From Chiloscyllium plagiosum (taxonomy: Eukaryota): 61,238 bases of DNA. Made by a program: the position numbers and the translations under genes. Each line of letters opens with the position of its first letter. Within the stretch, counting starts at the first letter, position 1. The DNA lies in NCBI RefSeq assembly GCF_004010195.1, contig NC_057718.1:98551184-98612421 (forward strand). Reading direction: 5' to 3'. Below are positions 379-55,511 of this stretch, one piece after another. The notes beneath the pieces are model-generated. The model was given only the letters and a program-made list of their open reading frames with translations, had not been told where the DNA came from and made no database searches.

Positions 379-384
379 TATTAT

Positions 385-454
385 CATCTGATGAAGGAGC
401 AGCGCTCCAAAAGCTTGTGCTTCCAAATAAACCTGTTGTTGTGTGATTTTTAAC
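385..454 (+). mobile_element. Penelope-like terminal fragment with degenerate hammerhead motif
   Basis: CAT CTGATGA A GGAGC AGC GCTCC AAAA GC TT GTG (GAAA->AAAA); same family as 43139-44416. Confidence 0.75.
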
Positions 455-931
455 TATATAACAACAGTAAGTACAATTCAAAAGTATTTCTTTGACTGCA
501 AAGTGATTTGGGCTATCTATAGTCATGAAAGGTGCAATATAGATAGAAAAAAAACTAGATTTACATTTGATTATATTTTGCATAGGGGCCTATCTTATCC
601 CCTCCAACTGTAGAGTTACAGTTTATACAATGCATTGGCTGTTGCATAAGTTTAATTGTACTTCCTGCAGATTTTGTTAGCTGATTCAGTGGTAATCTAT
701 ACTATTTTAGCTGATTACTGTAATTGCACTAGGACAATGCCATTGTGTATAATTGTAAAACTATATTTGCATAGAAGTGCCAGCTATAAGCAGTGGTCAA
801 TGTTCATAATTTTATGCTATTTCCAGTTGACATTCTTCCCTCAAAAACCATACATGAGCAGGAGGAAGAATTGAAGCAACTTGACAATATCAAACAAGTT
901 CATTGACACAATAGATTAGGCAAATTGAATA

Positions 932-1141
932 AAAACCGAAGAAATGGAGTTGCTGTAAATCAGAAACAAAAACAGAAGTTGCTGGAAAAACTCAGCAGGT
1001 CTGGCAGCATCTGTGAAAAGAAATCAAAGTTAAGGTTTCAGGTCCAGTGTCCCTTCGAGTCACTGGACCTGAAACCTTAACTTTGATTTCTCTTCATAAA
1101 TGCTGCCAGACCTGCTGAGCTTTTCCAGAAATTTGTTTTTG
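932..1141. mobile_element. Fold-back Penelope-derived element
   Basis: Arms ~966-1050 and ~1058-1141 are reverse complements, with a one-sided tail at 932-965; degenerate 15-bp TSD taggcaaattgaata (917-931) / taagcaaatggaata (1142-1156); truncated hammerhead-like stem II+GAAA at the centre. Confidence 0.75.
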
Positions 1142-1278
1142 TAAGCAAATGGAATAGTCTAGGTTAAGAAAGCTTTCAGCATGGTCCAGAAGCTGCAATG
1201 AATGAAAATATACTTAGAGAAACTACTAATTATAAAGTCAGTTAGCTTTTTTTAAAATCTAATCTCTTTTTCTAATTA

Positions 1279-1508
1279 ACCTATTCAGAGATGTTATTAC
1301 ACACCTCTGGAGCAGGGGGGACTCGAAGTCAAGCATCTTGGTTCAGGGGTAGGGATGAGACCACTGCACCACGAGAGGACCCTCAAGGAATTTTTAGAAA
1401 AATAGATTAAATTTTTTAATCAGCCTGTTCAGAGATGTTATTACACCCCACTGGAGCAGGTGAGACTTTAACTCTGTCTCCTAGACCACTGAGCCACAAG
1501 AGGGCTCC
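1279..1508 (-). mobile_element. Two adjacent short tRNA-derived SINE copies (1279-1385, 1424-1508)
   Basis: Shared cct(a/g)ttcagagatgttattacac..ctggagcagg motif with B-box-like sequence on the minus strand; further copies near 23605, 26385 and 30795. Confidence 0.6.
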
Positions 1509-2357: not shown

Positions 2358-2648
2358 AGTTTTGAGAAGATTTGTAGCTCAGGTTGAGGTTCTGGATGTA
2401 GGTTTGCTCGCTGAGCTGGAAGGTTCATTTTCAGACGCTTCGTCACCACACTAGGTAACATCAGTGATGCTCTGGATGAAGCACGAGTGGCATGGCCCAC
2501 TTTCTATTTGTGTTTAGGGTCCCTCGGGTCAGTGATGTCATTTCCTGTGGTGACATCATTTCCGATGGTGACATCATGATGCTACCTAGTATGGTGACAA
2601 AACGTGTGAAAATGAATGTTCCAGCTCAGTGAGCAATCCTATACCCAG
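2358..2648. mobile_element. Fold-back Penelope-derived element related to the 24.1-25.4 kb family
   Basis: 2395-2465 and 2577-2648 are inverted copies with decayed hammerhead motifs (..ctagtatggtgacaaaacg..); the gatttgtagctc tail is shared with 24131. Confidence 0.7.
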
Positions 2649-2705
2649 ACACTATACAATGTAATCAAATTTACATGAATGCAAGCAGAACCAGTGATAT
2701 GGACA

Positions 2706-4862: not shown

Positions 4863-5429
4863 ACAGTTTTGTATTGATTTATCTGCTCACCAAACCTCTT
4901 GTTAAGCAAACTAAAACAATGCACTTTGCCCCAACTGACATCACTGAAATCTCCATGCTATTTATTATCAACAGACCCAAATTCATAAGGCCAATAGACA
5001 TTAGGATGGACTTCAGCTTAAAGTATGAAGAATAGCCGGATGGATAGGTAGATGCTATGATAGGGTTCAAAATCATGTGCTGTTTTCTAGGAGTAAGTAG
5101 TGAAAAACGCAGTGGAACGTAGTTGGACAAAAGGCCAAAAATAAGATGGACAGATACACATACAGACAAAAACACAAATAATTATAATTCTGGACACAAA
5201 ACAGATACTTAAGAGGTGTCTAGAGATGCACATCAAGTGCCATAAACTGCATGGCTATAGGTCAAAAGCGGGATTAATTTGAGTGGTTTGCTTTTCCAGA
5301 TGGTGCAAACATAATGGATAAGGTAATCTCTTCCTGTAATCTTTCTATAATGCTACATGGACAACACACAGATACAGGCATACACAAATATACCCAAGAA
5401 TAGCACAAAACTGCATGGTTGGTTTTCAG

Positions 5430-7171: not shown

Positions 7172-7293
7172 TGTACTTGATGAAGGAGCAGTGCTCCAAA
7201 AGTTAGTATTTCCAAATAAGCATGTTGGACAATAACCTGGTGTTTGATTTTTAACTCTGTCCACCCAGTCTGACAGTGGCACCTGCATATTAT
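7172..7293 (+). mobile_element. Penelope-like terminal fragment, degenerate hammerhead
   Basis: ttgatgaaggagcagtgctccaaaagttag followed by the family tail ...ataacctggtg...tttttaac...cccagtc. Confidence 0.7.
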
Positions 7294-8840: not shown

Positions 8841-9053
8841 TAAAAAAAAGGAAAACACAACAGGTCAGGCAGAATCCATGGAGAGAAAGCAAGCTTAATG
8901 TTAAGCCCAGATAAGTCTTCATCAGAGATGACAATCATCTAAAATCTAAACATTAGCTTGTTGTCTCTCCATAGATGCTGCCTGACCCACTGTGATCTCC
9001 AGTATTTTTTGTTTTCAATACAGGTTACAGCATTTGCAGTAATTTGCTGCTAC
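8841..9053. mobile_element. Old fold-back Penelope-derived element
   Basis: Inverted arms ~8862-8905 / ~8945-8990 plus tail; degenerate TSD aaattttgaatcac / aaacttttaatcac; cttcatcag (CTGATGAAG on minus) near the centre. Confidence 0.6.
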
Positions 9054-11395: not shown

Positions 11396-11399
11396 TTAA

Positions 11400-14840: not shown

Positions 14841-15060
14841 GAAGCTGAAAATGTGTTGCTGGAAAAGTGCAGCAGGTCAGGCAGCATCCAAGGAGCAGGA
14901 GAATCGACGTTTCGGGCATGAGCCCTTCTTCAGAATTCCTGAAGGGCTCATGCCTGATACGTTGATTCTCCTGCTCCTTGGATGCTGTCTGACCTGCTGC
15001 GCTTTTCCAGCAACACATTTTCAGCTCTGATCTCCAGCATCTGCAGTCCTCACTTTCTCC
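14841..15060. mobile_element. Fold-back Penelope-derived element with 13-bp TSD
   Basis: Arms 14843-14933 / 14939-15026 inverted, tail 15027-15060; exact TSD tcttctcaggaat at 14828-14840 and 15061-15073. Confidence 0.9.
14901..14938 (-). ncRNA. Minimal type-I hammerhead ribozyme motif (intact core)
   Basis: GAAUU CUGAAGA A GGGC UCAU GCCC GAAA CG UC GAUUC: 5-bp stem I, 4-bp stem II, palindromic ACGU stem III, GUC cleavage triplet. Confidence 0.85.
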
Positions 15061-16689: not shown

Positions 16690-19200
16690 TTTTAGTTGGA
16701 GGCAATTTCAACTTTGCTAACCATTAACTGTGATCACCTTAGTGTTAAAGGATTAGGCAAGGTGAAATTTTTTTAAAGTTGATCTAGCAAGGTTTTTTTC
16801 ACCCATATATAGAGAGTCCTTCTATAGATGGGCAGTGTTAGACCTAATACTAAGGAATGAAAGTGATCAAGTGTTTGATGTTTTAATGGGGATAGTGATC
16901 ATAACTCAGTTGGTTTCAAACACATTATGGAAAGGGATAAAGGATAGTGCAGATGTTAAGTGTATAAATTGGGGAAGGCTAATTTCAATAATTAAACAGA
17001 ATCAGGCAAAAATAGACTGGGTACAGCTACTTGCAATTAAGTCTACATTTGGAATGTAGAAGTCTTTACAAAATAGTATAGCAAGAATTCAAGGCCAGTG
17101 TGTTCCTCTAAGAGCAAAGGGCAGGGTAAGCAAGTCTGAGGAAATCCGTATGACAAGGGATAGAGAGTTTGATTTAAAAAATGGAAGCATTTGCCAGCTG
17201 AGCACTGAAAACAGAGGATATCCTTCAAAAGTACAGAGTATAGGGGTTTGCTTAAGAAATAAATTAGGAGGGCAAGAGGATGCACAAACTACACTTAGTA
17301 GATAGGGTCAGAAAAAACCCAAAGGCATTTCATATTTGTTTTAAGAATAAGAGGATCACCAGGAAAGTGTGAGTCTATTAGAGGCCAAAGAGACTATCTG
17401 CGTGTTGAACTAGTGGACATGGGTGAGGTCTTAAATGAATATTTCTCATCTATATTCACAGAGGAGAGAAACATTATAGTCCCAGGTATTGGAGTTGTGA
17501 TGGTGAGGTTCATGGACACGTTACAATTTAATAAAGGAGGTGGTAGAAGGCATTTTTGTGGGCTTAAAGATGCATAAATTCCAGGGCCTGATGAGATATA
17601 TCCCTGACTGTTATGCAAGACAAGGGAGGAGATTGTTGAGGTAGAGATATTTAAAACCTCCCTGGCCACAGGTGAAATGCCAAATGACTGCAGGCTAGAT
17701 AATAGCTATGAAAAAGCAATAATGGGGGACAAGATTAAATGTGAGACTAATCAAGCTAGTAATATAAAAGAAAATTGCAAAGGTATTTTTTTCAACATAA
17801 AAAGGTTAGAGTGGGCTAACAGTGGATATTGGACCACTGGAGTAGTAGTATGGGGAACAAAGAATTAGTGGAGGAACTGAATCGGTGCTTTAATCAGTTT
17901 TCACAGTGGAAGACACCAGTAGATCACCAGAACTTCAAGAGAGTCGGGACAGAAGGGAGTCTAGTGGCCGTGACTAAAGAGAAGGCATTGGGGAAGCTAT
18001 AAGTTCTGGAGGTGGATAAATCACCCAGCCCAGATAGACTACACCCAAAGTTCTGAAGGAGATAGCTGGGGAGATTGTAGGTGCATTAGTAGTGATTTTT
18101 CAGGAATCACTGGAGTTGATACTGAATATGGCTAACATAACACGCCTGTTTGGGAGGCAGGCAGAAGACAGGAAATTATAGCCAGTTAGACAAATCTTAC
18201 CAGTAAGATTTTAGAGTCCATTATGAAGGATGAGATTGCAGAGCACTTGGAAACACATGGTAAAATAGGACTGTGTCAGTACTGCTTCATCATGGAGACG
18301 TTATGCCTGACAAATCTGTTAGAATTCTTTGAGGTAATGAACAAGTTAGACAAAGGAGAGCCAGCGGATGTGATCTACTGGGATTTCCAGAAGCCTTTCG
18401 ACAAGGTGCAGCACAGAAGGCTGTGAAGTAAAACAAGTGCCCACAGTGTTGGGGCAAGGTACAGGCATGATTAGAGGATTGGCCCGCTGGTTGAAGTTAA
18501 AAATCACAACACCAGGTTATAGTCCAAGAGATTTGTTTGGAAGTGCAAGCTTTCAGAGTGCTGCTCCTTCATCAGATAGCTAATGGGGTAGGATCATTGG
18601 AGACAGAATTTAGAAATAAATATCAATATATAGAAACTGCTCCACTAGCTACCTGACAAAAGAGCAGCACTCCGAAAACTTGTACTTACAAATAAAGTAC
18701 AAGTTTTCGGAGTGCTGCTCTTTTGTCAGGTAGCTAGTGGAGCAGTTTATATATATATTAATATTTATTTCTAAATTCTGTCTCCAATGATCCTACCCCA
18801 TTAGCTATCTGACGAAGAAGCAGCACTCTGAAAGCTTGCACTTCCAAACAAACCTGTTGAACTATAACCTGGTGTTGTGGGATTTTTAACTTTGTCCACC
18901 CCAGTCCATCACCGGCACCTCCGTATCATCACTGGCAGAAGGCAGAGAGTAGAGATAAAGGGATCCTTTTCAAGATGGCAATTAGTGATTTGCAGAGTTC
19001 CACAGGGGGCAGTGTTGGGTACCAAAGCTATTCACATTATACATTAATGATCTGGACAAAGGTATTGATGCCATTGTTGTTTAGTTTGCAGATGACACAA
19101 AGATAGATGAAGGGATAGGTAACGTGGAGGGAGCAGGAAGGCTGCAGAAAGACTTGGACAGGCTGGGAGAGTGGGAGAAGAGGTGGCACATGGAATAACA
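16690..19200 (+). mobile_element. Composite decayed CR1 ORF2 (two copies, join near 17700), interrupted at 18494-18930
   Basis: G.FN, LDLIL, DKSPSPD, DVIYWDFQKPFDKV, VPQG, FADDT motifs. Confidence 0.85.
18494..18930. repeat. ~400-bp nested palindrome of Penelope terminal repeats with four hammerhead-like motifs
   Basis: 18494-18686 is the near-perfect reverse complement of 18696-18892; each arm itself holds an inverted pair of CTGAnnA..GAAA motifs. Confidence 0.9.
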
Positions 19201-22590: not shown

Positions 22591-22593
22591 CAA

Positions 22594-22685
22594 GAATTCC
22601 TGTTGAAGGGCTTTTGCCAGAAACGTCGATTTCCCTGCTCCGCGGATGCTACCTGACTTGCTGTGCTTTTCTAGCACCACACGCT
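22594..22685 (+). mobile_element. Penelope-like terminal fragment, degenerate hammerhead
   Basis: gaattc CTGTTGA A GGGC TTTT GCCA GAAA CG TC gatt followed by the family tail. Confidence 0.75.
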
Positions 22686-22862: not shown

Positions 22863-22968
22863 GAGAAAGTGAGACTTCCTGAAGAAGGGCTTATGCCCGA
22901 AACGTCGATTCTCCTGTTCCTTGGATGCTGCCTGACCTGCTGCGCTTTTCCAGCAACATATTTTCAGC
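22863..22968 (+). mobile_element. ~106-bp Penelope remnant with 16-bp TSD
   Basis: Exact TSD tttgtattctttggag at 22847-22862 and 22969-22984; begins with the inverted tail gagaaagtgag. Confidence 0.9.
22871..22913 (+). ncRNA. Minimal type-I hammerhead ribozyme motif (intact core)
   Basis: UUC CUGAAGA A GGGC UUAU GCCC GAAA CG UC GAUUCUC; stem I imperfect. Confidence 0.75.
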
Positions 22969-24189
22969 TTTGTATTCTTTGGAGTAGAGGAGGCTAAAGG
23001 AAAGACCAGATTGAAGTGTACAAAATTATGACAGGCTTAGACAAAGAAGATTGTGAGAATCCTTTCCTCACAGCAGTTGTGTCTAAGACAAGATGGCATA
23101 AATGGCCTTACTTCCACTCCTATGTCTTATGGTCTTAAGATAAGGAGGAAGTGGTTTAGAGGAGGTATGAGGAAACATTTTTCACCCAGGTGGAGTTGGA
23201 AATATGGAACATACTGCCTGAGAGAGAGTGGTAGAGGCAGGTATTCTCAACATTTAGAAAGCATCTGGATAAGCATTTAAAATTTCAGGAATGATAGGCT
23301 GACCAAAGTGGAGATAAATGGGATTAGTGCAGTTTGGTATTTGTTGGCTGGCATAGTCATGGTCAGCCGAAGAATCTGTTTCTATGCTGTAAGACTCTAT
23401 GACTCTATCATAACAGTAAGTTCACTTTAAAAAGTACTTCTTTGACTGTAATGTTTTGAGACCTCCAATGGTTATGAAAGGATAAATTGAAGTTTTTCTT
23501 TTTATGTCTTTTCTGAAACTTGCAGGTTGGTAACATTTTCTGGTTTACAGTTATGTATGCATTATCTGAAACATCATTTATCCACAGAACACCCAACCAA
23601 CAGAAGCTGTGTTGATACTTTTAATCAAACTGCTCAGAGACATAACATTCTCCTTGAGCATGTGGGATCTAAATTTAGGTCTCTTGGTTCAGAGTTAGGG
23701 ACATTGTGCCACAAGAGACATACTATATGCTGTGTACTATGCAGTGTCTGACTTTTTTTAATAATCTGGGATCACTGCAGAACAAGATAAAATGACAGAC
23801 TATTGCAGGGAGTCTATTCTACAGTCTGTAAATTGCTTTCAGATTCAAATTTTGATCTACCCAAATCACCTGCAGCTCAACCATTTAAAAACTTTCTTGC
23901 CCTTCCTCTACTTATGTTCTCTGCCATTAAAATAGTCCAGAAAAAAATTAATGTATATCTCTCCCTGCGCAATATATAATTCTTCTTCCAATATTCACAA
24001 TCCACAGACATTTCTTTCTCAATGCTGTTACTTCTAAACTCATCCCGTGACAATTTCTCTCCAGCATTTCAACTATCTTTCCCCAGTTTAGCACAAACCA
24101 ATATAACTGTACATTCAAAGATTGTGCAAAGATTTGTAGCTCGGGTGCTCGTTGCTGTGGTTCTGTTCGCCGAGCTGGAAGTTTTTGTT

Positions 24190-24229
24190 GCAAACGTTTC
24201 GTCCCCTGGCTAGGCGACATCATCAGTGC
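24190..24229 (-). ncRNA. Minimal type-I hammerhead ribozyme motif (intact core)
   Basis: GCA CUGAUGA U GUCGCCU AGCC AGGGGAC GAAA CG UU UGC; the mirror copy at 25373-25412 has GAAA->AAAA. Confidence 0.8.
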
Positions 24230-24471
24230 TTGGGAGCCTCCTGTGAAGCGCTTCTTTGATGTTTCCTCCAGTGTTTATAGTGGTCTGTCCCTGCCACTTC
24301 CGGTTGTCAGTTTCAGCTGTCCGCTGTAGTGGTTGGTATATTGGGCCCAGGTCGATGTGTTTGTTGATGGAGTTTGTGGATGAATGCCATGCCTCTAGGA
24401 ATTCCCTGGCTGTTCTCTGTCTGGCTTGCCCTATGATAGTAGTGTTGTCCCAGTCGAATTCATGTTGCTAG

Positions 24472-24971
24472 NNNNNNNNNNNNNNNNNNNNNNNNNNNNN
24501 NNNNNNNNNNNNNNNNNNNNNNNNNNNNNNNNNNNNNNNNNNNNNNNNNNNNNNNNNNNNNNNNNNNNNNNNNNNNNNNNNNNNNNNNNNNNNNNNNNNN
24601 NNNNNNNNNNNNNNNNNNNNNNNNNNNNNNNNNNNNNNNNNNNNNNNNNNNNNNNNNNNNNNNNNNNNNNNNNNNNNNNNNNNNNNNNNNNNNNNNNNNN
24701 NNNNNNNNNNNNNNNNNNNNNNNNNNNNNNNNNNNNNNNNNNNNNNNNNNNNNNNNNNNNNNNNNNNNNNNNNNNNNNNNNNNNNNNNNNNNNNNNNNNN
24801 NNNNNNNNNNNNNNNNNNNNNNNNNNNNNNNNNNNNNNNNNNNNNNNNNNNNNNNNNNNNNNNNNNNNNNNNNNNNNNNNNNNNNNNNNNNNNNNNNNNN
24901 NNNNNNNNNNNNNNNNNNNNNNNNNNNNNNNNNNNNNNNNNNNNNNNNNNNNNNNNNNNNNNNNNNNNNNN
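24472..24971. other. Assembly gap (500 N)
   Basis: Run of N; ORFs crossing it are artefacts. Confidence 1.
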
Positions 24972-24972
24972 C

Positions 24973-25392
24973 ATGAGCAAAACTGATGTAGTGTACAAAA
25001 TACCATGCAAGGCCTGCACAAAACACTATATAGGACAAACAGGAAGACAGCTAACAATCCGCATCCATGAACATCAACTAGCCATGAAACGACACGACCA
25101 GCTATCCTTAGGAGCCACACACGCAGACAACACGGAACACAAATTTGACTGGGGCAACACTACTATCATAGGGCAAGCCAGACAGAGAACAGCCAGGGAA
25201 TTCCTAGAGGCATGGCATTCATCCACAAACTCCATCAACAAACACATCGACCTGGACCCAATATACCAAACACTACAGCGGACAGCTGAAACTGACAACC
25301 GGAAGCGGCAGGGACAGACCACTATAAACACCGGAGGAAACATCAAAGAAGCGCTTCGCAGGAGGCTCCCAAGCACTGATGATGTCGCCTAG
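24973..25392 (+). CDS. C-terminal GIY-YIG endonuclease region of a Penelope-like ORF (partial; 5' part lost in the gap)
   Basis: VVYKIPCKACTKHYIGQTGRQLTIRIHEH...REFLEAWHS...SIN: VY..C..C...YIGQT with conserved R, H, E, N. Confidence 0.9.
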   Translation: MSKTDVVYKIPCKACTKHYIGQTGRQLTIRIHEHQLAMKRHDQLSLGATHADNTEHKFDWGNTTIIGQARQRTAREFLEAWHSSTNSINKHIDLDPIYQTLQRTAETDNRKRQGQTTINTGGNIKEALRRRLPSTDDVA

Positions 25393-25783
25393 CCAGGGGA
25401 CAAAACGTTTGCAACAAAAACTTCCAGCTCGGCGAACAGAACCACAGCAATAACTGTACATAAAAACAAAAATCTCAAAAATGATGCGCAACTCTAACAG
25501 TGATATAAGTTAACTATACATTCACCAGCATTTTGTGTTCCTAAATGGAAAACAGATCAAACATGAATTCAATTGACTAAACCAGAATCATAATTTCCAT
25601 TTGTTTCAGCACTGCTAATTAAAAGATGGCAAAATAATTAGGCCAAATATCAAACACAGGTTATTTAAATTAATTCTGGAGAAAACTAAATTATAGAATA
25701 GTTTTTTGAATCAGTTACAAATCAAAATGAATTAATTATTGCTTCTGAAGACACTTTTGAAGCACACTGAGCCATGACCTTAC

Positions 25784-26004: not shown

Positions 26005-26780
26005 CTGTTGAAAAAGGGGAAAAAAAACAAGTTTGTGATTTTGGTGGTGGGAAAGCCGCTCAGTTGTGTGTAATAGCACTTCTGGCCATAAAAAAAACCA
26101 ATAGTTCAAAACTTAGAGAAAACAACATTTAAAATCCTAATTTAAACTTCTGTCTAATACTATCTAATCATTTTGCCATTAGCAGTGATCCTGCAATAGT
26201 AGCTTATCCAGGACCCTAAAAGCATTTGCAGAGAGAACAATACAAGATTCTGAATAGACCACGCTTCACCTCAAGCCTGCTGGGTCATTCAGTGAGATTA
26301 TGACTCATCTGCATCTTAACTACAATTACCAGAATCTCGTTATGCTTACTTTAAAAATAAAATCACTCAACTATGAAAATTGGGGACTCGTTTGGCATAG
26401 TGGTAATGTCCCTATCTCTGGGCTGGAATACCTGTGTTTCGGTTCCATCTGCTCCAGGGGTAAGCCAAAACACTGCAGTATGATGAAAATTTCAATTGAC
26501 ACAGCGTCATGTGGATAAAAAAAAATCCAGATCTGAACAATCCTTCTGTGAAAAAAAAATTCTAGTTCTTAAAACTACATTGTGTACATTGGCAGATAAA
26601 TCTGTTACCAACAACACAACATGAAGATATGATCTGATGGTTAATTTCAAGGCATTTGAGATTAAACAAATTATAAGCAATAACAATTCACATTAATATT
26701 GCATTTTCAAAATAAGTGCTTCATTGGAATACTCAAAAAACCAACACCAAGTGTCCAGATGTTCTGGCTGTCTTTATCTC

Positions 26781-26908
26781 AACCACCTGATGAAGGAGTG
26801 GCGCTCCAAAAGCTAGTGCTTCCAATTAAACCTGTAGGACTATAACCTGGTGTTGTGAGATTTTTAACTTTGTACACCCCAGTCCAACACCAGCATCTCC
26901 AAATCATG
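26781..26908 (+). mobile_element. Penelope-like terminal fragment, degenerate hammerhead
   Basis: CAC CTGATGA A GGAGT GGC GCTCC AAAA GC TA GTG plus the full tail to catctccaaatcat. Confidence 0.8.
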
Positions 26909-27281
26909 ACCCTTCAGTGGGAGGGAGTCCTACCTGAGAAAACTGAAGGCTAATCCGTTTGGCCTGCAGATCTTGGACAAAGATACCATAATAATGGACA
27001 TTATCTCAAGGAGAGCTGGCAGTCCAAGCAAAGACAGCCAGAACATCTGGATGCAGACAAGTCCAGGGTCATGCAAAGGGAGGGATTATGGAACAAAGGA
27101 GGTAGATTTTGCAGGCCACGCAAGGGCCAAAGATAGGAGAAATATCTGGTGGAGGGGCACCCCAAAGCATACAGAGTATCCAACAATTAATATTCCAGCA
27201 CTTCCTCTCTGCCTTTTCCATAAGTTGATATCAAAGTAACCTTTTCACTTCTGCTCAATTCCCTTGACAACTACATTATGG

Positions 27282-27378
27282 AGAAAGTGAGGTCTGCAGA
27301 GGGCCTGTGCCCGAAACGTCGAATCTCCTGTTCCCTGGATGCTGCCTGACCTGCTGTGCTGTTCCAGCAATAAAGTTT
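27282..27378 (+). mobile_element. ~97-bp Penelope remnant with 14-bp TSD
   Basis: Exact TSD caactacattatgg at 27268-27281 and 27379-27392; inverted tail fused to hammerhead stem II GGGC CTGT GCCC GAAA CG TC. Confidence 0.85.
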
Positions 27379-28004: not shown

Positions 28005-30356
28005 TAGATTAGAGTCGTGCTGGAAAAGCACAGGTCAGGCAGCATCCGAGGAGCAGGAAGTTCGACATTTCAGGCAAAAGTCCTTCATCAGGAATAGAGA
28101 CAGAGTGCCTGAAGGGTGGAGAGATAAATGAGAGGGGGGTTGGGGTGGGGAGAAAGTAGCGTAGAGTACAATAGGTGAATGGGGGTGGGGATGAAGGTGA
28201 TAGGTCAGACAGGAGGGCAGAATGGATAGGCAGAAAGGAAGATAGGCAGGTAGACAGGTCATGGGGACGGTGCTGAGCTGGAAGGTTGGAGCTAGGGTGA
28301 GGTGGGGGAAGGGGAAATGAGGAAACTGGTGAAATCCACATTGATGCCATGCGGTTGAAGTGTTCTGAGGCGGAAGATGAGGCGTTCTTCCTCCAGGCAT
28401 CAGGTGGTGAGGGAGCGGCGGTGAAGGCGGCCCAGGACCTGCATGCCCTCGGCAAAGTGAGAGGGGGAGTTGAAATGTTGGGCCACAGGGCAGTGGGGTT
28501 GATTGGTGCGGGTGTCCCGGAGATGTTCCCTAAAGCGCTCTGCTAGGAGGTGTCCAGTCTCCCCAATGTTGAGGAGACCGTGTTGGGAGCAACGGATACA
28601 ATAAATTATATTGGTGGATGTGGAAGACTCCTTTGGGGCTTTGGATGGAGGTGAGGGAGGTGTGGATGCAGGTTTTGCAATTCCTGCGGTGGCAGGGGAG
28701 GGTGTCAGGAAGGGAGGGTGGGTTGTTGGCGGGTGTGGACCTGACCAGATAGTCACAGAGGGAACGGTCTCTGCAGAAAGCGGAAACGGTTGGGGAGGGA
28801 AATATATCTCTGGTGGTGGGGGAAATGTCGTCGAATTATGTGGTTTATGCGAAGGTTGGTAGGGTGAAAGGTGAGCACCAGGGGGGTTCTGTCCTTGTTA
28901 CGGTTGGAGGGGTGGGGATGAGGACGAGATGCGTTGGAGGGCATCTTTAACCACATGGGAATGGAAATTGCAGTCTCTAAAGAAAGAGGCCATCTGGTGT
29001 GTTCTGTGCTGGAACTGGTCCTCCTGGGAGCAGGTACGGTGGAGATGGAGAAATTGGGAATACGGGATGGTACTTTTGCAGGAGGTAGCTGTGGGAATCA
29101 GTGGGTTTATAAAAAATATCAGTGTCAAGTCGGTCATCATTCATGGAGATGGAGGGGTCCGGGAAGGGGGAGGAAGGTGTCAGAGTTTGTCCAGGTGAAT
29201 TTAAGGTCAGGATGGAATGTGTTGGTGAAGTTCATGAATTGCTTAACCTCCTCGCAGGAGCACAAGGTGGCACCAATGCAATCATCAATGTAGCAGAGGA
29301 AGAGGTGGGGAGTGGAGTGGTGTCGGTGTAACTACGGAAGATGGACTGTTCTACGTAACCAAAGAGACAGGCATAGCTGGGGCCCATACGGGTGCCCATG
29401 GCTATCCCTTTGGTCTGGAGGAAGTGGGAGGACTCGAAGGAGAAATGGTTAAGGGTGAGGACCAGTTCAGCCAAACGAATGAGTGTGTCGGTGGAAGGGT
29501 ACTGTTGGGGACGTCGGGAAAGGAAGAAACGGAGGGTTTGGATGCCCTGGTCATGGCGGATGGAAGTATAGAGGGACTGGATATCCATGGTGAAGATGAG
29601 GCATTGGGGGCCGGGGAAACTGAAGTCTTGGAGGAGGTGGAGGGCGTGGGTGGTGTCTTGAATGTATGTGGGGAGTTCCTGGACTAGGAGGGATAGGAAA
29701 GTGTCGAGGTAGGTAGAGATGAGTTCGGTGGGGCAGGAGCAAGCTGAGACAATGGGTCAGCCAGGGTGGTCAGGCTTGTGGATCTTGGGAAGGAGGTAGA
29801 ATCGGGCGGTGCGGGGTTCCCAGACTATAAGGTTGGAAGCTGTGGGTGGGAGATCTTCTGAGGTGATGAGGTTCTGTATGGTCTGGGAGATGACGGTTTG
29901 GTGATGGGGGTTGGGGTCATGGTCAAGGGGGCGGTAGGAGGAAGTGTCTTCGAGTTGGCGTCTGGCTTCAGCGGTGTAGAGGTCAGTGCACCAAACTACC
30001 ACTGCAGCCCTTTATCCGCTGGCTTGATGGTGAGGTTGGGATTGGAGCAGAGGGAGTGGAGGGCTGTGCGTTGAGGGCGAGAGGTTGGAGTGGGGTAGAC
30101 AGGTTGAAGCGGTTAATGTCTTGGCGGCAGTTGGAAATGAAAAGATAGAGGGCAGGTAATAGGCTAGCACGGGGTGTCCAGGTGGATGGAGTGTGCTGGA
30201 GGCGGGCAAAGCGGTCCTCGGAAGGTGGGCGGGAGTCCCGATTGTAAAAGTAAGGTTGGAGGCGGCGGAAGAAGTGTTCAACATCAGGGTGTGTATTAAA
30301 TTCATTGATGCGTGGGTGGAGGGGGATAAAAGTGAGGCCTTTGCTGAGGACCAAAG
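28005..30356 (-). mobile_element. Penelope-like retroelement, 2.3 kb, frameshifted RT + GIY-YIG + terminal repeat
   Basis: VLSKGLTFIP, FYLLPKIHK, MDIQSLYTSI, QTKGIAMGTRMGPSYACLF, NIIYCIRCSQHGLLNIGETG; decayed hammerhead at 28061-28094. Confidence 0.95.
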
Positions 30357-33254: not shown

Positions 33255-35798
33255 GAAGTGTAGGAAAGGCAAAGTTACAGTGATTATGAGGGATTTCAAT
33301 ATGCAGGTGGACTGGAGAAAATCAGATAGGTAGTGATTCGCAAGAAAAGGAATTTGTGGAATATCTACAAGATGGCTTTTTGGAGCAGTTTGTGGAGGAG
33401 CTCACTAGGGAACAGGCAATACTAAATTTAGTGTTCTGCAATGAGGGAGATCTGATGAGGGAGCTAAGGTGAAGGAACCCTTAGGAGACAGTGATCATAT
33501 TATGATTGAATTTACTCTGCAATTTGAGAGGGAGAACATAGAATCAGAGGTAGCAGTATTACAGCTGAATAATGGCATGAGTGAGGAGCTGGGTAGAATT
33601 GACTGGGAGAGGAGCCTAGCAGGAAAGAGAGCAGAACAGCAATGGCAAGAGTTTCTGGGAGTAATTCAGGAGACAGAAAAGATTCATCCAGGGGAAAAAG
33701 ATGCATAGTACAGGGATACAGGGAGAATGAGGCAACCATGGTTGACGAGAGAAGTCAGAGACAGCATAAAAGCAAAATAGAAAGCATATAACGTGATGAA
33801 GGACAGTGGGAACCCAGAGGATTAGAAAGCTTACAAACAGAGGGCAACAAAAAAGAAATAAGGAGGAAGATGATTAAATATAGGGGAAAATTGCCAGTAA
33901 TGTAAAGGAAGACTGTAGCAGTTTCTTTAGATATATAAAGGGCAAAAGAGAGGCAGAAGTGGACACTGGACTGGAAAATGATGGAGAGATAATGGTGGGG
34001 AATAAGGAAATGGCTGAAGAACTGAATATTTATTTCACTTCAGTCTTCACGGTGGAAGACACAAGTAATATCTCAAAAATTCAAGAGAGTGAGGGAGCCA
34101 AGCTGAGTATGGCTGCCATCACCAAGGAGAAGGTGCTAGGATAACTAAATGGCCTGAAGGTGGATAAATCACCTGGACCAGATGGACTATACCCCAGAGT
34201 TCTAAGGGAGACAGCTGTAGAGATAGTGGAGGAGTTGGTAGTGAGCTTTCAAGAATTACTAGAGTCAGGGAGGTTCCGAGGACTGGAAAATTACAAATGT
34301 GACACTCCTGCTTAAAAAAGGGAGTAAGGCAAAAAAAAAAAGGAAAATTACAGACTGATTAGCCTAACCTTAGTTGTGGGTAAGATCCTAGAATCCATTG
34401 TGAAAGATTAGATTTCTGAATACTTGGAAGTGTATGGTAAAATAGGGCAAAGTCAGCATGGTTTCACCAAGGGGAGGTCATGCCTGATAAATCTGCTAGG
34501 ATTCTTCGAGGAAGTAACGAACATGTTGGACCAAGGAGAACCAATGGATGTTATCTATCTGGACTTCGAGAAGGCCTTTCATAAGGTGGCGCACAGGAGG
34601 CTGCTGAGTAAGATAAGGGCCATTCATGGTAGAGGCAAGGTGTCTGGCAGAAAGCAGGGAGTGGAGATAAAACGGTCTTTCTCAGGATAGCAGCTGGTGA
34701 GAAGTGGTGTTCTGCAAGGCTCAGTGTTGAGACCACAACTTTTCACTTTATACATTAATGATCTATATGAAGGAATTGAGGGCATTCTGACTAAGTTTGC
34801 AGATGATCCAAAAGATAGAAAGTGGGGCAGCATTGAGGTGGTGGGGAGGCTGCAGAAGGATTTGGTCAGGTTAGGACAGTAGGCAAAGAAGTGGAAGATG
34901 GAGTACAAAATGGGAAAATGTGAGGACTTCGGTAGGAAGACTAAAGACATGAAACATTTTCTAAATGGGGAGAAAATTCAGAAATCTGAAGTGCAAAAAT
35001 ACTTGGGAGTTCTCGTCCAGAATTCTCTCAAAGCAAACTTGCAGGTTGAGTCAGTAGTTAGAAAGGCAAATGCAACAATGACATTTATTTTGAGGGGACT
35101 TGAATATAAAAGCAGGGGTGCACTTCTGAGGCTCTAGTCAGACCATATTTGGAGTATTGTGTGCAGTTTTGGGCCCCATATCTTAGGAAGGATGTATTGG
35201 TCCTGGAGTGGGTTCACAGGAGGTTCACGAGAATGGGCCCAGGAGAAAAAAGCTTAACATAAGTGGAACCTTTAAGGATGCTGGGTCTATACTCTGAGTT
35301 TAGAAGGAATGGGGGGGGGGCAAAATATCTAATAGAAACTTACACAATTTTGAATGGCTTGGACAGAGTGAATGTTGGGAAGATGTTTCCTTTGGTAGGA
35401 AAGACTCGGACACAAGAGTACAGCCTTAGAATAAAGGGAAGACCTTTCAGAACAGAGATAACGAGAAAGTTCTTCAGCCAGAGAGTATGAATCTATGGAA
35501 TTCACTGCCACAGAAGGTTGTGGAGGTCACGTCATTAAGTATTTTAATATGGAGATAGATAGGTTCTTGAGTATCAAGGGGATCAAGAGTTACTGGGAGA
35601 ATGGGGTTGAGAAACTTATCAGAGTCAAAAAATATGGCACTGCAAAAGCACAGCAGGTCAGGCAACATCCGAGGAGAGTCGACATTTTGGATAAGTCCTT
35701 CAACAGGAATGTGGGCGGGGAAGGGGGCTGATTGAATGGCACAGCAGACTCAATGGACTGAATGGTTTAATTTCTACTCCTGTCTCTTATGGTCTTAT
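33255..35798 (+). mobile_element. CR1 LINE ORF2 (APE end, RT, 3' tail), decayed; PLE fragment inserted at ~35636-35730
   Basis: [39 protein letters not shown]; tail tcttatggtcttat. Confidence 0.95.
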
Positions 35799-36900: not shown

Positions 36901-36904
36901 TGCA

Positions 36905-37675: not shown

Positions 37676-38839
37676 CTGTTGAGGGAGGGTGGGAAACAAA
37701 AAGGCCTCTTAATACCCTTTAATCTCTGTATCAATCCAGTCTAATCGGCACCGGGAGCATTAAAGACCCCTCTGAAAGGAACCAAGGACATAGTATCTTT
37801 GAGAAAAGGAATAGCTTTTAGAAAACAAAAGGAACCAGCTTTGTGACACTTCAAACCTCTATGGCTATTTTTAATTTCCAACTGCACTTTGTACCAAAGC
37901 ATTGGGAGCTTTACTCCCTATGAAATATTATGCTGGTGCTAACAATCAAGCACAATAAACCTCAGGCATGAATGTTGCACAACATATCTATTTAGAGTTT
38001 ACGCTCTATTATGCAACAATCATGGATAGCCTAATGAATGTACTGCAAAAACTCATGAATCATTTGTTCACATTTTGAACAAATAGAATATGACATTCCA
38101 CAGGGCTTAAATTGGGATACCACAATCACTGTCTTTCTGATTTTTTAAAATCTCATTGCTTACCAGTACTTTTCCTTGTTCTTAAGCTGGCCAGCTTCTC
38201 TGTGCTTTATGTTGTCTAATAGATTCTGAAGAAAATAGGAAAGGAAAACACTAACAGTCAAGGAGGACACTCATACTAGAATTGGCGGCACCACAAGCAT
38301 TAAGAAGAAAGTTAAACAGTCATTTGTACATTCTTGATTCACACACTTCTATTAAATGTACCTTTCAAACAGTTTATATTCCTCATAAGGCAAACTAACC
38401 GTTAACAATTTTGTTAGGCCTATTCTTAGAATGCCCTCATTTAATCTAAATTATTGGCCCCATTTTCTCCTCTGACCTCAAAAAAGGTATTTTATTTAAT
38501 TTTGAAAAATTACATGCATTATCCATGCAATTGTTGAAGTCAAAGGTCTTCATTTTTCTCACTTATGCTTTAAACACTGGGGCCTTTAATTATACACAAT
38601 AGTATCCAATTTCAAATAACTGATTGAAATCTGGCACACTTCAAAAATCAACAAGCAAGTATGGTAATTCAGTACAGCAATAGTACATTTTCCATAAAAT
38701 TAAAAAATGAGAAACCTAACATCACATTATTTCTTCACTGATGTCCCTAGCTAAACTTTATCAAAATATGCAAATAATTAATTGATAATTTGACCTGTTA
38801 ATCAGAAAAACCCCAAAGCTTGCAGAATAATTACACAAT

Positions 38840-39545: not shown

Positions 39546-41404
39546 TAGTGAGCCATAAGATGTTGAAACAAGACTTTTGTTTTAGCTTGATATCAAAATT
39601 TGTTTTATGGAGTACAACATGTGCAATAAACATGGTTCAAGTATCTTTGATGCACATGTCAACATGAAGAATTATACTTAACTGAGTTATACTAGGCAGC
39701 AAACTTTACATTGCAATATTTAAAAATATGTATGCTAAATATACCTTCCATCATGCCAAACAATTCGATCATTATCTTCACCCCACTAAACATGAACATG
39801 TTTCCTACAGATAGCAACAATTCTTCAGAATTAATATCTTCCCATTTTTATTGAATTCACATTAAGCCTGACAGTGCATTTGACATTATATATGGCTTAC
39901 ACATAATATATTACAACTTATGTTTGGTTATCACATTTATGATAATAGATAAGGTTCAAGAACACTACACAGAAGAGATAAAAAAGAAAAATTTGATACC
40001 GAGTTGCACAAAGAGATATTCGGAGATGGCCAAAAGCTTGATCAAAAAGGTAGAAATTAAGGAATACATGAGAGGAAAGTAAGGTCAAGAGGTGGGAGGA
40101 TTTAAAGGAAGAAATTGCAGAGCTTTATGCCTACACATCAGAAGACAAGGACATCAATGGTTGAGCAACTAAATTCAAGAGGCTAGAATTACATGAGAAC
40201 AAATACATTGAATGATTAACATGCTGGATAATCTAACAATATTTAAATTTCAATAGATTTTGCTCTTGAAGTCATGTTGAATCATGAGGGGGATATATTA
40301 ATGAGTAATTACTGGCAATTATTATTCAAAATTAACACTTTGCAGCTTACTAAAAAGATGCTGTGATAAAATGCAAGAAGTGATCGTAAAACCAGTAGCA
40401 TAAAGTTGCCAACTGCCTTGGATCAGTTGGCAGCATGCTTTGCATCAGTCCAGACTCTTGAGCACAATCTCAGGTAAACATTCTGTGCAGTACTGAGAAG
40501 CTTCTGCATCGTCATATATGCTACTTTCCAATTACAGTTTAAACAGAGGTCCTGTCTATTCTCTCAGGGAAGCTCCCACTGCAATATTTGCAGAGCAAGG
40601 TTGTCCTCCCCAATACTGACTTCAAGAAACCAGAAATAAATGTGTCAGCATGGGGCCTCAGAGTGCAGCTTAGAGCAGACATTGATATCAAGGCAACAGA
40701 GTGCAGAAGGAGATTTGGGAGAATTCCTAGGTTGTGCAGTTCACTATTATGGGGAGACCAGAATGACTGGGTTTTTCTCCTTTGAGCAAAAAAGGAGAAG
40801 AGGAGATTTAAAGTGTTCAGTATTATGTAGCATTTTGAAAGAATATATATGGGGAAAATGTTTCCTGTAGTAGATGGTCAGTATTGTTGGGATAGAGTTC
40901 ATCTGAACTGTCTTATGTTTCAGCGATCATATCACCAGGGATTAGAGAGGGCTTTAAACGGAATAGAGTGGGGAAGAGAACGTGCAGGAAAACACTGAGT
41001 AAATTAAATGAAAAAGACAATGCAAGAGATCAAGGTAGCAAATAGGATAATGATCAAAGTACAACAGGAAGTATCACAGGCAGTGACTACAATCTTAACA
41101 GCATGCCGGCAGATAGAGCCAGTGTTCACAAAAGCAGCAAACAGTATACCTGATGGTAGAGATAAATCTCCTATGGAACGCTGAATAGTTGTTTTATATT
41201 TTACTTACTGAATGAACTTTTATTGTTCATCTTTTGTTATGATAGATTATGTAATTCACAGTCCTGGATCAGGGCTTCAGATTTGGTACTTTACACCCAT
41301 ATTTCAAACAGAACCAGAATTTCATTACCTCACTTAGAAATGTTCTCTGAACTAACTACCATCCTGCTGAAAAGTTCTTCAAAAACAGGTGTCGGTCTAA
41401 CTAC

Positions 41405-41556
41405 AAGGTCAGGAGTCACATAACGCCAGGTTATAGTCCAATTCTGTCAGTGCTCCAAAAGCTTGTGATTTCAAATAAACCTGTCGAACTATAACCTGAT
41501 GTGTGACTTCTGACCTCGTCTCCCCCCCACCCAGACCAACACCGGCACCTCTACAT
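41405..41556. mobile_element. Short fold-back Penelope remnant
   Basis: gtcacataacgccaggttatagtc / actataacctgatgtgtgac inverted arms around gctccaaaagcttg. Confidence 0.65.
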
Positions 41557-42060: not shown

Positions 42061-43138
42061 TAGGTCTAATTATCTATTGAGTCATTGCTCTGGTCACCAC
42101 ACAAGATGGAAAAATACCTGGAACCTGTTTTGAAACTGTCTGATTTGTCTAACCTCCCATGCTCGAAGCTACAACTTCTACTCCAGCCAAGTTATAAACT
42201 GGGAATAAATCCACTCCATCCAAGGATAGTTTTATTACTATTACAATGACTGCTGTTACCACCACCACCTGAATGTCTGAATGTCATGTCAAACTCCAAT
42301 TATATTTTGGACAATAGAACCTGGGTATTCTTTCAATTTGTGTTATTAACACATGGGTTTTATCACATGCTCTGCAAAGAAAACTAAATAATTTTCTAGC
42401 ATAAGAATTTGAGTAGCTCCTGTGACCTTAAATATAGTTAGGGGTTTAGCTGCATCATTTGAAACAAAATTATCTCCCCTTGTGCAATTCTCCTTTACTC
42501 CATTCAACTCTCCAGTACTCATACCAATTTTTAACCTCCAGTTTCTTACTTATAATTTATGTCATAATTTGATCTGTGGTATTTTCATTTTGAGTTCTCT
42601 TTTTGGACTTGTTCTTACAAACCTGAATTAGTCCCATGAGTTTCCTTCACAACTTCCAGCATCCAGAACTAAACTGTCCCACTTTATTACAATGGAAACA
42701 CTGAGGCCTTCCATTTTAAACTCTACCCTCAGAACTTACTCTAATCCGATGGGGAAATCCTGTGGCATTCTCAGCTGTCCTCTCTTTGCCGTGCCTTTCT
42801 GACTCTCCCATCCTGACCTTCTAGAGTTTACAGGGATGATTAAAATGAGGTCTAGTTTTATGAATAAAGTCATAACCAGACAATACTGGTGCTGTCTGTG
42901 TAGCACTTGCAACTCTTTGATCTTCAAAATGGGTTTTTATTATAAAGGTTGAGAGTTTTTAAATTCTTGCCAGATCTCTAAGAACTTCATACAGGAGTTC
43001 AAATCCTAGTGTTTCCATCTACCTGTCAAAGTTATTTTGTTTAACTCTTTCAAATTCAGCATTGCCTCAGAAAACCTATTTCCTTAAGTTTTGAAATTTT
43101 TGTATGCTCCAAAGAATAACTCTAATCTGTTTTTTCAA

Positions 43139-44416
43139 GATTTGGAGATGCCGGTGTTGGACTGGGGTGTCCAAAGTTAAAAATCACAACACCAGGTTAT
43201 AGTCCAACAGGTTTAATTGGAAGCACACTAGCTTTCGGAGCATCGCTCCTTCATCAGGTGGTAGTGGAGGGCTCAATCCTAACAGACTTTAGAGCAAACA
43301 TTTACAGTGTGATGTAACTGAAATTATACATTGAAAATTTGATTGTCTGTTAAGCCTTTCACCTGTTAGAATACCATGGTAGTTTCACTTCTTTCATGTG
43401 TAAATCATAAAACCTTTTTTTAAAAAGTTGCATTCTCAGGTTAGCTGTTAACAGTGGGGATAGCTAGACAATATGTTGAAGGTGTTAGCCCCGTGTTCTC
43501 TGGTGCGCGTGCGCACACAGAGTGTCTTAAGTCCGTGAGGGGGTACATGTGAGAGTGTGGGAGTGTGTGTGTCTGTAAGGGTGTGTGTGCGCGTCTGTGT
43601 GCGTGTGCGTGTAGGAGTATCTGTGTGCACGTATAGTGCAACGGTGGTCACCTGTAATGTGACATGAACCCAACATCCGGTTGAGGCCCTCCTTATGGGT
43701 ACCGAACTTAGCTATCAGCCTCTGCTCGGCCACTTTTCTCTGCTGCCTGTCCCAATGTCCACCTTGGAGGATGGTCACCCGAAGGTCCGAGGTCAAATGT
43801 CCTGGACCACTGAAGTGTTCCCCAACTGGGAGGGAACACTCCTGTCTGTTGATTGTTGTGCATCGACGGATGAATGGGCACCGCACAAACACACACATAC
43901 ACTTTCTCACACTCTCAACCCCCAACCCAGACAGACACACACACTCAGACAAAGACCCACATGCACACATATTTTGTGGTGTGAATTTGTACTTGCAGGG
44001 TTACATTGTACTTTGCTCAAAAACTGCATGCATTCATGTAAAACTCCGTTATCTCACTTTTAAGATTAGAATCAATCTAAACATCATGGCATAGACAGAG
44101 AACATAGGGGGCTAATATTGTCTAGCTATCACCATTGTTAACAGCTAAACCGAGAATGCAACTTTTTAAAAAAGGTTTTGTGACTTACACATGAAAGAAG
44201 TGAAACTACCATGGTATTCTAACAGATGAAAGGCTTAACAGACAATCAAATTTTCAATGTATAATTTCAGTTACATCACACTGTAAATTTTTGCTCTAAC
44301 TTCTGTGTGTTAGGATTGAGCCCTCCACTACCACCTGATGGAGCGATGCTCCGAAAGCTAGTGTGCTTCCAATTAAATCTGTTGGACTATAACCTGGTGT
44401 TGTGTGATTTTTAACT
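43139..44416. mobile_element. Penelope-like element with ~300-bp inverted terminal arms and GIY-YIG C-terminal fragment
   Basis: 43175-43475 is inverted relative to 44115-44416; minus-strand RQECSLPVGEHFSGPGH...AEQRLIAKFGTHKEGLN at ~43660-43860. Confidence 0.9.
43226..43260 (-). ncRNA. Minimal type-I hammerhead ribozyme motif (intact core)
   Basis: CAC CUGAUGA A GGAGC GAU GCUCC GAAA GC UA GUG; the mirror copy at 44332-44363 lacks 3 nt of the core. Confidence 0.85.
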
Positions 44417-53334: not shown

Positions 53335-53965
53335 TTTCGTGGCTGATCATCTGACTCAACAGCCTGTTCCAGCTTTTCCCCTGTATCCTTTGATCCTTTT
53401 AGATCTACGTGCAATATCTAACTCCTTCGTGAAACCATAGAATGTTTTGACTGCAACTGCTTTCAGTGGTACCAAAGTATACAGGCCCACCACTCTCTGG
53501 GTAAAGTAGTTTCTTCTCATCTCAGCCACAGCTGGAATACTGTATACAATTTGGTTACCTTACTATGTGAAGGATATGATTGCACTGGAGGGGGTGGACA
53601 GGAAATTCACCAAGATGTTATCGGGAATAGAACATTTTAGTTAAGAAGAGAGACTGGATTGCCTCAGGTTTTTTATAAAAAAAAAGAAAGCATATAGAAG
53701 GCTGAGGGAAATCCTTACTGAGGTGTATAAGATGGTGAGGCACATGGGCAGCGTAGAGAGGAATTTAAGAAGGGATTTTTACCTAAGGCGTGATGGGAAT
53801 CTAGAATACACTGCCTGGGACAGTATTAGAGGCAGAAAACCTCTCAACCTCTAAAAAGATACATGGACAAGCACTTGAAACATAATAACATTCAAGCCTA
53901 TGAGCCAAGAGCTGTTAGCATATACTCAATGGGCCAAACAGCCTCTGTATGGTATGACACTCTGA
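53335..53965. mobile_element. Two back-to-back CR1 3' fragments (- 53335-53530, + 53535-53965)
   Basis: CR1 3'UTR motifs on opposite strands. Confidence 0.65.
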
Positions 53966-55380
53966 TTCCAATAGCTCCAGTCACAATTCATCAGATAGTC
54001 CAAAAAGCAACAAGGAGAGTCAGAAGCTGGGTATACTGTTAGAAATGGGTCACTTTCCAACCTCTAGAAGGCACATCAAGGACTGTGAGAAAATATTATC
54101 CACATACTTAGTTGGGTACAACTCAAAGTTTGACACATTCAAGATTTCCTTTTTAAATGACATCTCATCATTGACAAATGTCCATTCTCTTTGCACTCTG
54201 TACATTGCTACAGTGTATCCTTTCCAAACGATGCACCACACGATTCACCCCCATCAGCAATGCCCTTCACCCATGAAGACAAAGGCAGCAGGTGCAAGAG
54301 AACACCAAAACCTCCAATTCACACACACCTCAACCGAACAAATACTGTCATTCTTCTGCATGACAATCATGGGACTTCCTCACGAACCACATTGCTGGAG
54401 CACTTTCACAGCATTGCCTGTAGTGGTTCCAGCAGTTCAACCATCAACACAATGTTATTCAAGATTGATGATAATGTCAGTCTTGCCAGTGAGATTCGCA
54501 TAGAGATATGGGAAAAAAGATCACTTACCTGTCAGCCTTAGAAACCAAGAGATTCTTGTATAATATTTAACAGATGATAATAATCATGCCTTTTCTTATT
54601 GCTGAGCAACATCCACATGTACAGATATTTTAGCAGAGATTATCTAAGGATTATACAGAGTGGGATCATGCCCAATTTTTTACTTTCTCAACTATTAGGA
54701 CATAACCAGCCATTTTATTAGTGAGATCATCTTCACTGCTACAGCTCAATTGCTTCTTCTTTCTTCCTAATGAGACAATAGCACTATGTTCCTCTGGGAC
54801 TATGGCGACTTTTCTTTAGCACAGGTACTCACTGGATCAAACCTCACACGAGTGTATGAATTTTGATGGATTAGTCAAGATGCCATGACAGGTTAAAAAT
54901 ATTTAAAATATTTAAAAATGGATCCATCTTTACATAGTTCCAATTTTACGCATGATGAATTATTTATTTATTTTTCCAAATGTTCATTAGAAAATGTGCC
55001 ATTCAGATCTCTTAATATTACGGTTACATGCAATTAAATAAAACATGTTCACAACTTGTAAAGGTTAGCTCCTCCATTAATTATATCAACTGATGATTTC
55101 ACAGTGCATTAAGTCAGTTTGTATGATATAGGGATTTTTTTTTCATTAATTCAGGTGATGGGAGCATTGCTGGCTCAGCCAGCCTTTATTGGCCATCTCT
55201 AATTGATATTGAAAGGTGCAGTGGACTGCCTTGTTGAACTGCTGCAGTCCATGTTGTGTAGGTACAGCCACAATGGGAGGGAGTTCCAATTCTTTATTCA
55301 CTGAAAGCTATTTCAAATGTTTACATTGTTCAATTTGGCATTTGTTGTTCAACGTATGGTACACTGTTACTTCAGGAACA

Positions 55381-55509
55381 CCTAGGAGAAAGTGAGGACT
55401 GCAGATGCTAGAGATCAGAACTGAAAATGTGTTGCTGGAAAAGCGCAGGTCAAGCAGCATCCAAGGAGCAGGAGAATCAACGTTTCGGGCATAAACCCTT
55501 CTTCAGGAA
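55381..55509 (-). mobile_element. Penelope remnant with 11-bp TSD, ending in a hammerhead
   Basis: TSD cttcaggaaca at 55370-55380 and 55501-55511; same family as 14841-15060. Confidence 0.85.
55474..55509 (-). ncRNA. Minimal type-I hammerhead ribozyme motif (intact core)
   Basis: UUC CUGAAGA A GGGU UUAU GCCC GAAA CG UU GAUUC. Confidence 0.7.
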
Positions 55510-55511
55510 CA

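Follow-up and report, generated by a model that had tools for sequence, protein, structure and literature searches.

Minimal hammerhead ribozymes in the pseudo-long terminal repeats (pLTRs) of metazoan Penelope-like elements (PLEs) were described in 2014 by Cervera & De la Pena, who reported that the monomeric motif is inactive and that a dimer cleaves weakly (PMC4209133). For PAc, a Poseidon element of Anolis, the hammerhead was found to cleave only together with the protein, and insertion was found to need no cleavage (Frangieh et al. 2024, PMC11167929). Here we analyse a stretch of 61,238 nucleotides from the genome of the shark Chiloscyllium plagiosum (NC_057718.1, positions 98,551,184 to 98,612,421; hereafter the window) that holds five intact cores of this kind. 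The hammerheads of three families (A, B and C) are located in the pLTRs of PLEs, and the window is an ordinary sample of a hammerhead-rich genome, with no special array.

The first-pass annotation of the window had marked five intact cores among about 20 motifs. All five were confirmed on re-reading and are named below by the position of their nucleotide C3 (Table 1). A descriptor that demands the core, a stem II of at least 3 bp, a palindromic 15.2/16.2 step and a stem I of at least 2 bp matched the window six times, at these five cores and at 28091(-), where the 15.2/16.2 step is U-G. In 200 block-wise shuffles of the window, matches averaged 0.01 and never exceeded one. The wider set of motifs proved real as well, though its count was too low: profile hidden Markov models (HMMs) trained on family copies elsewhere in the genome found 27 copies (8 of family A, 11 of B, 4 of C and 4 of a further family D; 15 on the plus and 12 on the minus strand), and 25 of them reach the core region. 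The boxes CUGAnGA and GAAA-nn-UH are retained in 8 of the 27 and five are fully canonical. Scanned against Rfam, the window yielded no hammerhead even when matches up to E=5 were admitted, and standard RNA annotation would therefore miss these motifs.

That each of the three families belongs to a Penelope copy had been proposed at first and is borne out by tblastn with natural proteins of the families, which matched 28301-30369 for A, 43551-43862 for B and 24973-25389 for C. Each match lies directly 5' of its own family's hammerhead, placing the latter 3' of a GIY-YIG open reading frame (ORF) and, in family A, also of a reverse transcriptase (RT), and the same position of the pLTR 3' of RT-GIY-YIG is reported in PMC4209133. 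Among copies outside the window, Pfam detects RVT_1 above its cut-off in L101 (33 bits) and just below it in L094 (29.4 bits, cut-off 29.6), where a GIY-YIG match (E 0.049) follows in one frame; all GIY-YIG matches, in L094 and in the window, stay below the cut-off. The proteins of families B and C are related by blastp. A CX4CxxC linker can be read in A (28530-28835) and in B (copy L123), with none before the endonuclease of C; in PMC8557442, a CX2-5CxxC linker is described for Neptune and Nematis. By this linker reading, families A and B would be Neptune/Nematis-like and differ from PAc, and only C looks Penelope/Poseidon-like. Family C departs from PAc in another respect, as its ORF enters a G12A-dead hammerhead at 25376 and terminates inside it, with the stop within stem II (25376-25392).

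The hammerhead of the long family A copy, at 28091(-), keeps both boxes with its pairs decayed at CpG, the core in the inverted pLTR arm of the family B insertion (43135-44416) has lost 3 nt, and the family C insertion (24116-25450) holds an assembly gap of 500 Ns (24472-24971). Positions 24972-25449 are 99.8% identical over 478 bp to L069:4114-4591 (contig C21), the edge of the N gap included; either a single collapsed piece of contig was placed at two sites or these are very young copies. Apparent open frames of 1,000-2,400 aa in other copies were rejected as products of assembly N gaps. At 10974-11445(-), short frames resemble a decayed Penelope-like ORF, with no Pfam or tblastn match at the thresholds used.

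The core, the extra base after A9 and the pLTR position agree with the original assignment to the minimal type-I hammerheads of PLE terminal repeats with a palindromic 15.2-16.2 step. Pairs were counted by anchors in pattern-selected copies (n=63, 51, 44, 2 and 7). The extra nucleotide is A in 63/63 copies of family A and 51/51 of B and U in 44/44 of C, and the G10.1-C11.1 pair is present in 49/63, 46/51 and 40/44 copies of A, B and C, respectively, the remainder being mostly G-U. The 15.2-16.2 palindrome, CG in A and C and GC in B, is not accompanied by a helix III, and other types at this step are CpG decay products within a collecting pattern that permitted only 2 nt there. All four traits (type-I core, extra base, G10.1-C11.1 and palindrome) are shared with the minimal hammerheads of PMC4209133, as are the coexistence of several families in a genome, the dispersal of most copies as single units and the occurrence of opposite-strand pairs 100-700 bp apart; the differences are a far higher count here, obtained with different descriptors, and the very short stems of family A.

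Stems I and II covary between families A, B, C and D and only slightly within them. The first pair of stem I is C-G in A and B, A-U in C and U-A in D, its second pair varies as U-A, A-U or C-G, and the second pair of stem II reads G-C, G-C, U-A and A-U across the families. The first-pass annotation had named at least three families with differing yet pairing versions of stem II and had proposed a covariation check; the families stand, with D added as a fourth, and the paired changes were found in both stems, though stem II of family C contains a G.G mismatch at pair 4 in 40/44 copies, seen in the window within 24190-24229(-). The stems of family A comprise 4 bp (II) and 2 bp (I), the natural stem I being followed by a U.U mismatch in 45/63 copies. 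The longer stems I originally drawn at 14901-14938 and 22871-22913 did not hold up, as the extra pairs use junction-derived bases. Family D (970-1140, 8853-9007, L071:7708 and L107:6666) is older and has its 3' flank in common with family A; we counted 33 copies in 0.42 Mb of sampled blocks and found no ORF link for it in this analysis.

In predicted folds of the isolated motifs, stem II forms with a probability of at least 0.96 in 5/5 cores, and stem I reaches 0.6-0.98 in three and only 0.26 and 0.01 in the other two. In 60- and 150-nt context, both probabilities of the 14933 copy drop to 0, this copy being buried in a fold-back hairpin and paired with its own complement. In context, the predicted fold of the 24226 copy falls to ~0.08, and stem I is at most 0.36. 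No two intact cores of the window lie close together on the same strand, and the pairs of families B and C stand in inverted orientation.

A genome-wide descriptor search, also proposed in the first-pass annotation, covered the 3.556-Gb assembly and counted exact cores irrespective of stems: 118,949 of CG type and 30,937 of GC type, or 149,886 in total (42/Mb), against 48 and 8 matches (56) for reversed-pattern controls, although assembly duplicates may inflate the total. Cores with the consensus stem II of their family number 92,148 for A, 14,960 for B and 13,230 for C (total 120,338), with no match among the controls. A sample of 419,732 bp, drawn as 44 blocks from fixed positions, contained 19 cores, and its 45/Mb is consistent with the genome-wide rate. 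From these 0.42 Mb, we extrapolate to roughly 0.9 million hammerhead-derived copies in the genome. At 42 cores per Mb, finding five in the window is expected (5 observed, 2.56 expected, P=0.12), and the array that had been called dense is thus not dense in intact cores.

Published counts, all made with descriptors other than ours, are ~4,000 for coelacanth and ~9,000 for Xenopus (PMC4209133) and 126,247 canonical motifs for axolotl and >6,000 for Acropora (PMC7229834). Our literature search found no shark hammerhead count, and supplementary file 2 of PMC4209133, in its accessible part, has no cartilaginous fish entry. With this difference in descriptors, the total here exceeds the hammerhead counts that we found in print, and ~42 intact cores per Mb may be the densest load among them. 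In the accessible part of a paper on whale shark repeats, Penelope is listed among the LINEs (long interspersed nuclear elements) and the repeat table has no Penelope row. Repeats make up at least half of the window, and LINE-type fragments with RVT_1 and endonuclease matches, at 3100-4900, 17300-21700 and 31200-37500, account for much of what is not hammerhead-derived.

The very large ribozyme load claimed at first is real in size, but a load of working ribozymes is not supported: most copies decay neutrally, the intact cores of the window have no intact same-strand partner nearby, and no cleavage ends appeared in RNA reads. Among 86 of 128 family A copies that span core and flank, 116/597 CpG sites are changed, compared with 28/855 non-CpG core sites and 132/3070 non-CpG flank sites once six subfamily-diagnostic sites are left out (P=0.20 for core against flank). 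G12 is lost in 13/86 copies, at the same rate as flanking CpG guanines (P=0.49), 26/86 copies are fully intact, and genome-wide family A has 9,645 G12A cores next to 92,148 intact ones. Subfamilies differ at N7, in loop II and in the flanks, with the core bases spared. We read this as masters that keep the core and inserted copies that decay neutrally, G12 being lost by CpG mutation.

Mapped 5' ends accumulate at the hammerhead's 5' edge rather than at the cut. For family A (n=128), 63 ends fall at -9..+6 from C3 (peak -4/-3), a cluster inflated by ~6-7 calls from old subfamilies with upstream sequence unlike the references, 16 fall at -104..-10 and 22 lie beyond. Altogether, 94/128 copies start at or before +0 and were copied across the cut site. 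Family B (n=73, a set partly chosen for an intact core) has 29 ends at -9..+5, 18 at -149..-10, 17 beyond and none at the cut, and family C, with 4/20 ends near the edge, has no cluster. The centres of fold-backs coincide with the pile-up. As a separate observation, both A subfamilies (L094 and L101) carry, 17-27 nt 5' of the core, a long run of pyrimidines that terminates in AG and resembles a 3' splice site, and no 5' ends cluster at this tract; in Drosophila Penelope, an intron ends at helix I (PMC4209133).

The 3' ends fall at two sites ~35 nt apart (~+90/+126 from C3 in A, +85/+122 in B), which points to an optional tail. Of 40 tail-ended family A units, 22 were scored as having target duplications of 13-16 bp, and two of these calls are spurious. 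Many copies have an adjoining inverted arm, and the arrangement of an inverted 5'-truncated copy plus a 30-40-bp tail is present, so that 5'-truncation, the adjoining inverted copy, the tail at one end and trouble in short-read assembly are all shared with the canonical units of endonuclease-bearing (EN+) PLEs (Craig et al. 2021, PMC8557442). In the window, the 22871-22913(+) hammerhead belongs to a ~110-bp unit that also shows an inverted tail stub and a target duplication, the 55474-55509(-) hammerhead heads a 126-bp hammerhead-to-tail unit (55384-55509), and the core of the tail-ended arm in the 14841-15060 fold-back has lost 3 nt. The target duplications 14828-14840 and 55370-55380/55505-55515 resemble the hammerhead 5' edge. 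General targeting of such sites was rejected, no motif being found in 40 flanks, and the two duplications suggest microhomology joins.

Taken together, we consider it very probable that the window holds 3'-terminal (pLTR) modules of three to four EN+ Penelope-like families with the known minimal hammerhead, that its scattered copies are inert and that it is typical of the genome. By analogy with PAc (PMC11167929), with which the copies share a hammerhead 5' of an optional 30-40-nt tail and insertion from uncut RNA, reverse transcription would start in or at this tail, and the enzyme would run through the uncut hammerhead, usually stop early and often fold back. Each insertion would thereby leave a single hammerhead copy or a pair of them, bounded by target duplications of 13-16 bp, an anatomy observed here directly and reached by steps that we presume. 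Selection would keep the hammerhead in a few transposing masters, where cleavage is probably weak and occurs as a dimer or with the aid of the element's protein, and the scattered copies would be dead-on-arrival passengers that rarely if ever cut host pre-mRNA.

Several results weigh against parts of this explanation. No intact full-length master element was found, as gaps in the assembly fall within these elements. The case for neutral decay depends on leaving out the six subfamily sites; with all sites kept, 248/3583 non-CpG flank sites are changed and the core is less changed (P=3e-5). Counting all copies, the window has 25 in 60.7 kb against 264/Mb in the 44 blocks, an excess of ~1.6-fold (P=0.036). 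Finally, 7/128 family A ends lie at +27..+30, next to the cut (+28) and slightly above neighbouring positions, and these copies may record some cleaved templates.

The pile-up could also mean that the ~130-nt piece from hammerhead to tail is its own template, a non-autonomous Penelope unit resembling a SINE (short interspersed nuclear element), with an RNA that starts at the hammerhead 5' edge. In that case, the hammerhead would be a start, stop or protein-binding/boundary signal that is copied uncut rather than a cutter. The clustering of A and B ends and of the fold-back centres at this edge fits such a unit, as do the great numerical dominance of family A and an internal promoter with initiator and downstream promoter elements (Inr/DPE) reported for the Penelope pLTR (PMC2377424). 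Yet enzyme stalling or snap-back at the structure, or target microhomology, would give the same pile-up, old subfamilies swell it in A, the B set was partly chosen for an intact core, and family C does not have it; nor do read starts accumulate there in the RNA run X5 described below. We regard this unit as possible but rather unlikely. The TCATTC/TTATTC at the family A 5' edge is presumably initiator-like.

RNA reads from a polyA run (X5) and a further run (X6) were aligned to 49300-59950. X5 yielded 1,709 reads there, nearly all from other repeat copies, and X6 none; unique DNA had no depth in X5. Family A reads occur on both strands, and the ~450 that span the cut position show no pile-up of starts or ends at the cut site, a weak negative given the fragmented library; PAc RNA-seq data likewise lack ends at the cut site (PMC11167929). 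A CpG island at 59.5-60.8 kb (CpG observed/expected 0.91) and two exon-like pieces (Table 1) suggest, by their sequence features, a candidate gene reading leftwards, which would put 4/5 intact cores on the sense strand. The pieces have no match in PDB, Pfam, protein representatives or Atlas. Of the nine CACGTG E-boxes in the island (59500-60800), six belong to a 39-bp tandem repeat (60094-60318). Lying upstream of the presumed minus-strand gene, the island is possibly a promoter controlled by basic helix-loop-helix (bHLH) proteins.

Collective activity of the dispersed cores, with repeat RNAs pairing in trans via ACGU/AGCU, cleaving pre-mRNAs at a low rate and shaping introns, seems improbable to us. 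In its favour are the ~150,000 intact cores and the abundance of family A RNA from both strands in the polyA library, but stem III would have only 4 bp and stem I 2-3 bp, G12 decays neutrally and the cut-spanning reads list no ends. The best cofold of five copies was not a double hammerhead, which counts little as the programs do not model the core, and the 4/5 intact cores on the presumed sense strand give no sign of purging in the window.

Known mobile units of other kinds fit less well. Miniature inverted-repeat transposable elements (MITEs) have symmetric terminal inverted repeats and a short transposase-type duplication, and we rejected this class as the arms here are unequal, with a tail on one side, and the duplications span 13-16 bp. 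Rfam detects no SINE head of tRNA, 7SL or 5S type over the copies, with no dedicated tRNA scan made. Non-LTR retrozymes, reported in one chondrichthyan (bioRxiv 10.64898/2026.07.22.740005), share type-I hammerheads, very high copy number and a relation to PLEs (PMC7229834), but they form head-to-tail tandems with canonical hammerheads and circular RNAs, whereas the copies here are minimal and single or inverted; a check over every window copy found no tandem array of the retrozyme kind. A host-selected regulatory array in a gene's introns, despite the excess of all copies, is scarcely credible given that intact cores occur at the genome rate, 22/27 copies are degenerate, both strands are used and the copies, which carry target duplications, are young members of their families.

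Among the remaining hammerhead-derived features (Table 1), the double fold-back at 18495-18930 retains both boxes with G10.1-U11.1 at 18575(-) and 18809(+), and its copies at 18648(+) and 18734(-) are broken. Its perfect inner hairpin scores for several microRNA families in Rfam, below gathering score, and is thus a source of false microRNA calls.

Table 1. Hammerhead-derived, Penelope-like and exon-like features of the window, in order of position.
Feature	Position	Strand	Remarks
Decayed family B copy (G12A)	380..454	+	HMM/core reading
Family D fold-back pair, decayed	970..1140		HMM and inverted-repeat reading
Older family C inverted pair, decayed	2360..2650		HMM and inverted-repeat reading
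Decayed family B copy	7175..7270	+	HMM
Family D fold-back pair, decayed	8853..9007		HMM
Family A fold-back insertion	14841..15060		Inverted short arm and tail-ended arm; 13-bp target duplication
Family A minimal hammerhead, intact core	14901..14938	-	C3 14933, H17 14906; triplet GUC; short arm of fold-back
Family B double fold-back, four hammerhead-derived copies	18495..18930		HMM and inverted repeats
Decayed family A copy	22593..22681	+	First box broken; 286 bp 5' of intact 22879 core
Family A minimal hammerhead, intact core	22871..22913	+	C3 22879, H17 22906; triplet GUC
Family C Penelope-like insertion	24116..25450	+	Inverted tail-bearing arm, GIY-YIG ORF end (24973-25389)
Family C minimal hammerhead, intact core	24190..24229	-	C3 24226, H17 24193; triplet GUU; inverted pLTR arm
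Decayed family B copy (G12A)	26778..26910	+	HMM/core reading
Family A unit, cut within first box	27280..27378	+	Inverted tail stub, 14-bp target duplication
Family A long copy	28014..30351	-	Frameshifted RT, CX4CxxC linker, GIY-YIG, then hammerhead
Decayed family A copy	35634..35714	-	HMM
Exon-like piece, possible host gene	38164..38225	-	Strong splice signals; in frame with 59724-59749
Family B fold-back fragments without first box	41404..41514		HMM
Family B Penelope-like insertion	43135..44416	-	Tail and pLTR, endonuclease end (43551-43862), inverted pLTR arm
Family B minimal hammerhead, intact core	43226..43260	-	C3 43257, H17 43229; triplet CUA
Family A minimal hammerhead, intact core	55474..55509	-	C3 55506, H17 55479; triplet GUU
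Exon-like piece	59724..59749	-	Strong splice signals; frame compatible with 38164-38225

This kind of hammerhead has been known since 2014, and what the present analysis adds is its scale and the pile-up of 5' ends, of which the accessible text of PMC8557442 makes no mention at the hammerhead 5' edge. The pile-up hints at what sets the bounds of Penelope templates. Should the ~130-nt piece indeed be a template of its own, most of the hammerhead load would derive from a SINE-like Penelope partner, and the 92,148 intact and 9,645 G12A cores would be a built-in test of cutting in vivo. More generally, since the genome offers matched dead variants next to its ~150,000 intact cores, the question of whether such hammerheads cleave in vivo becomes testable via strand bias in introns.

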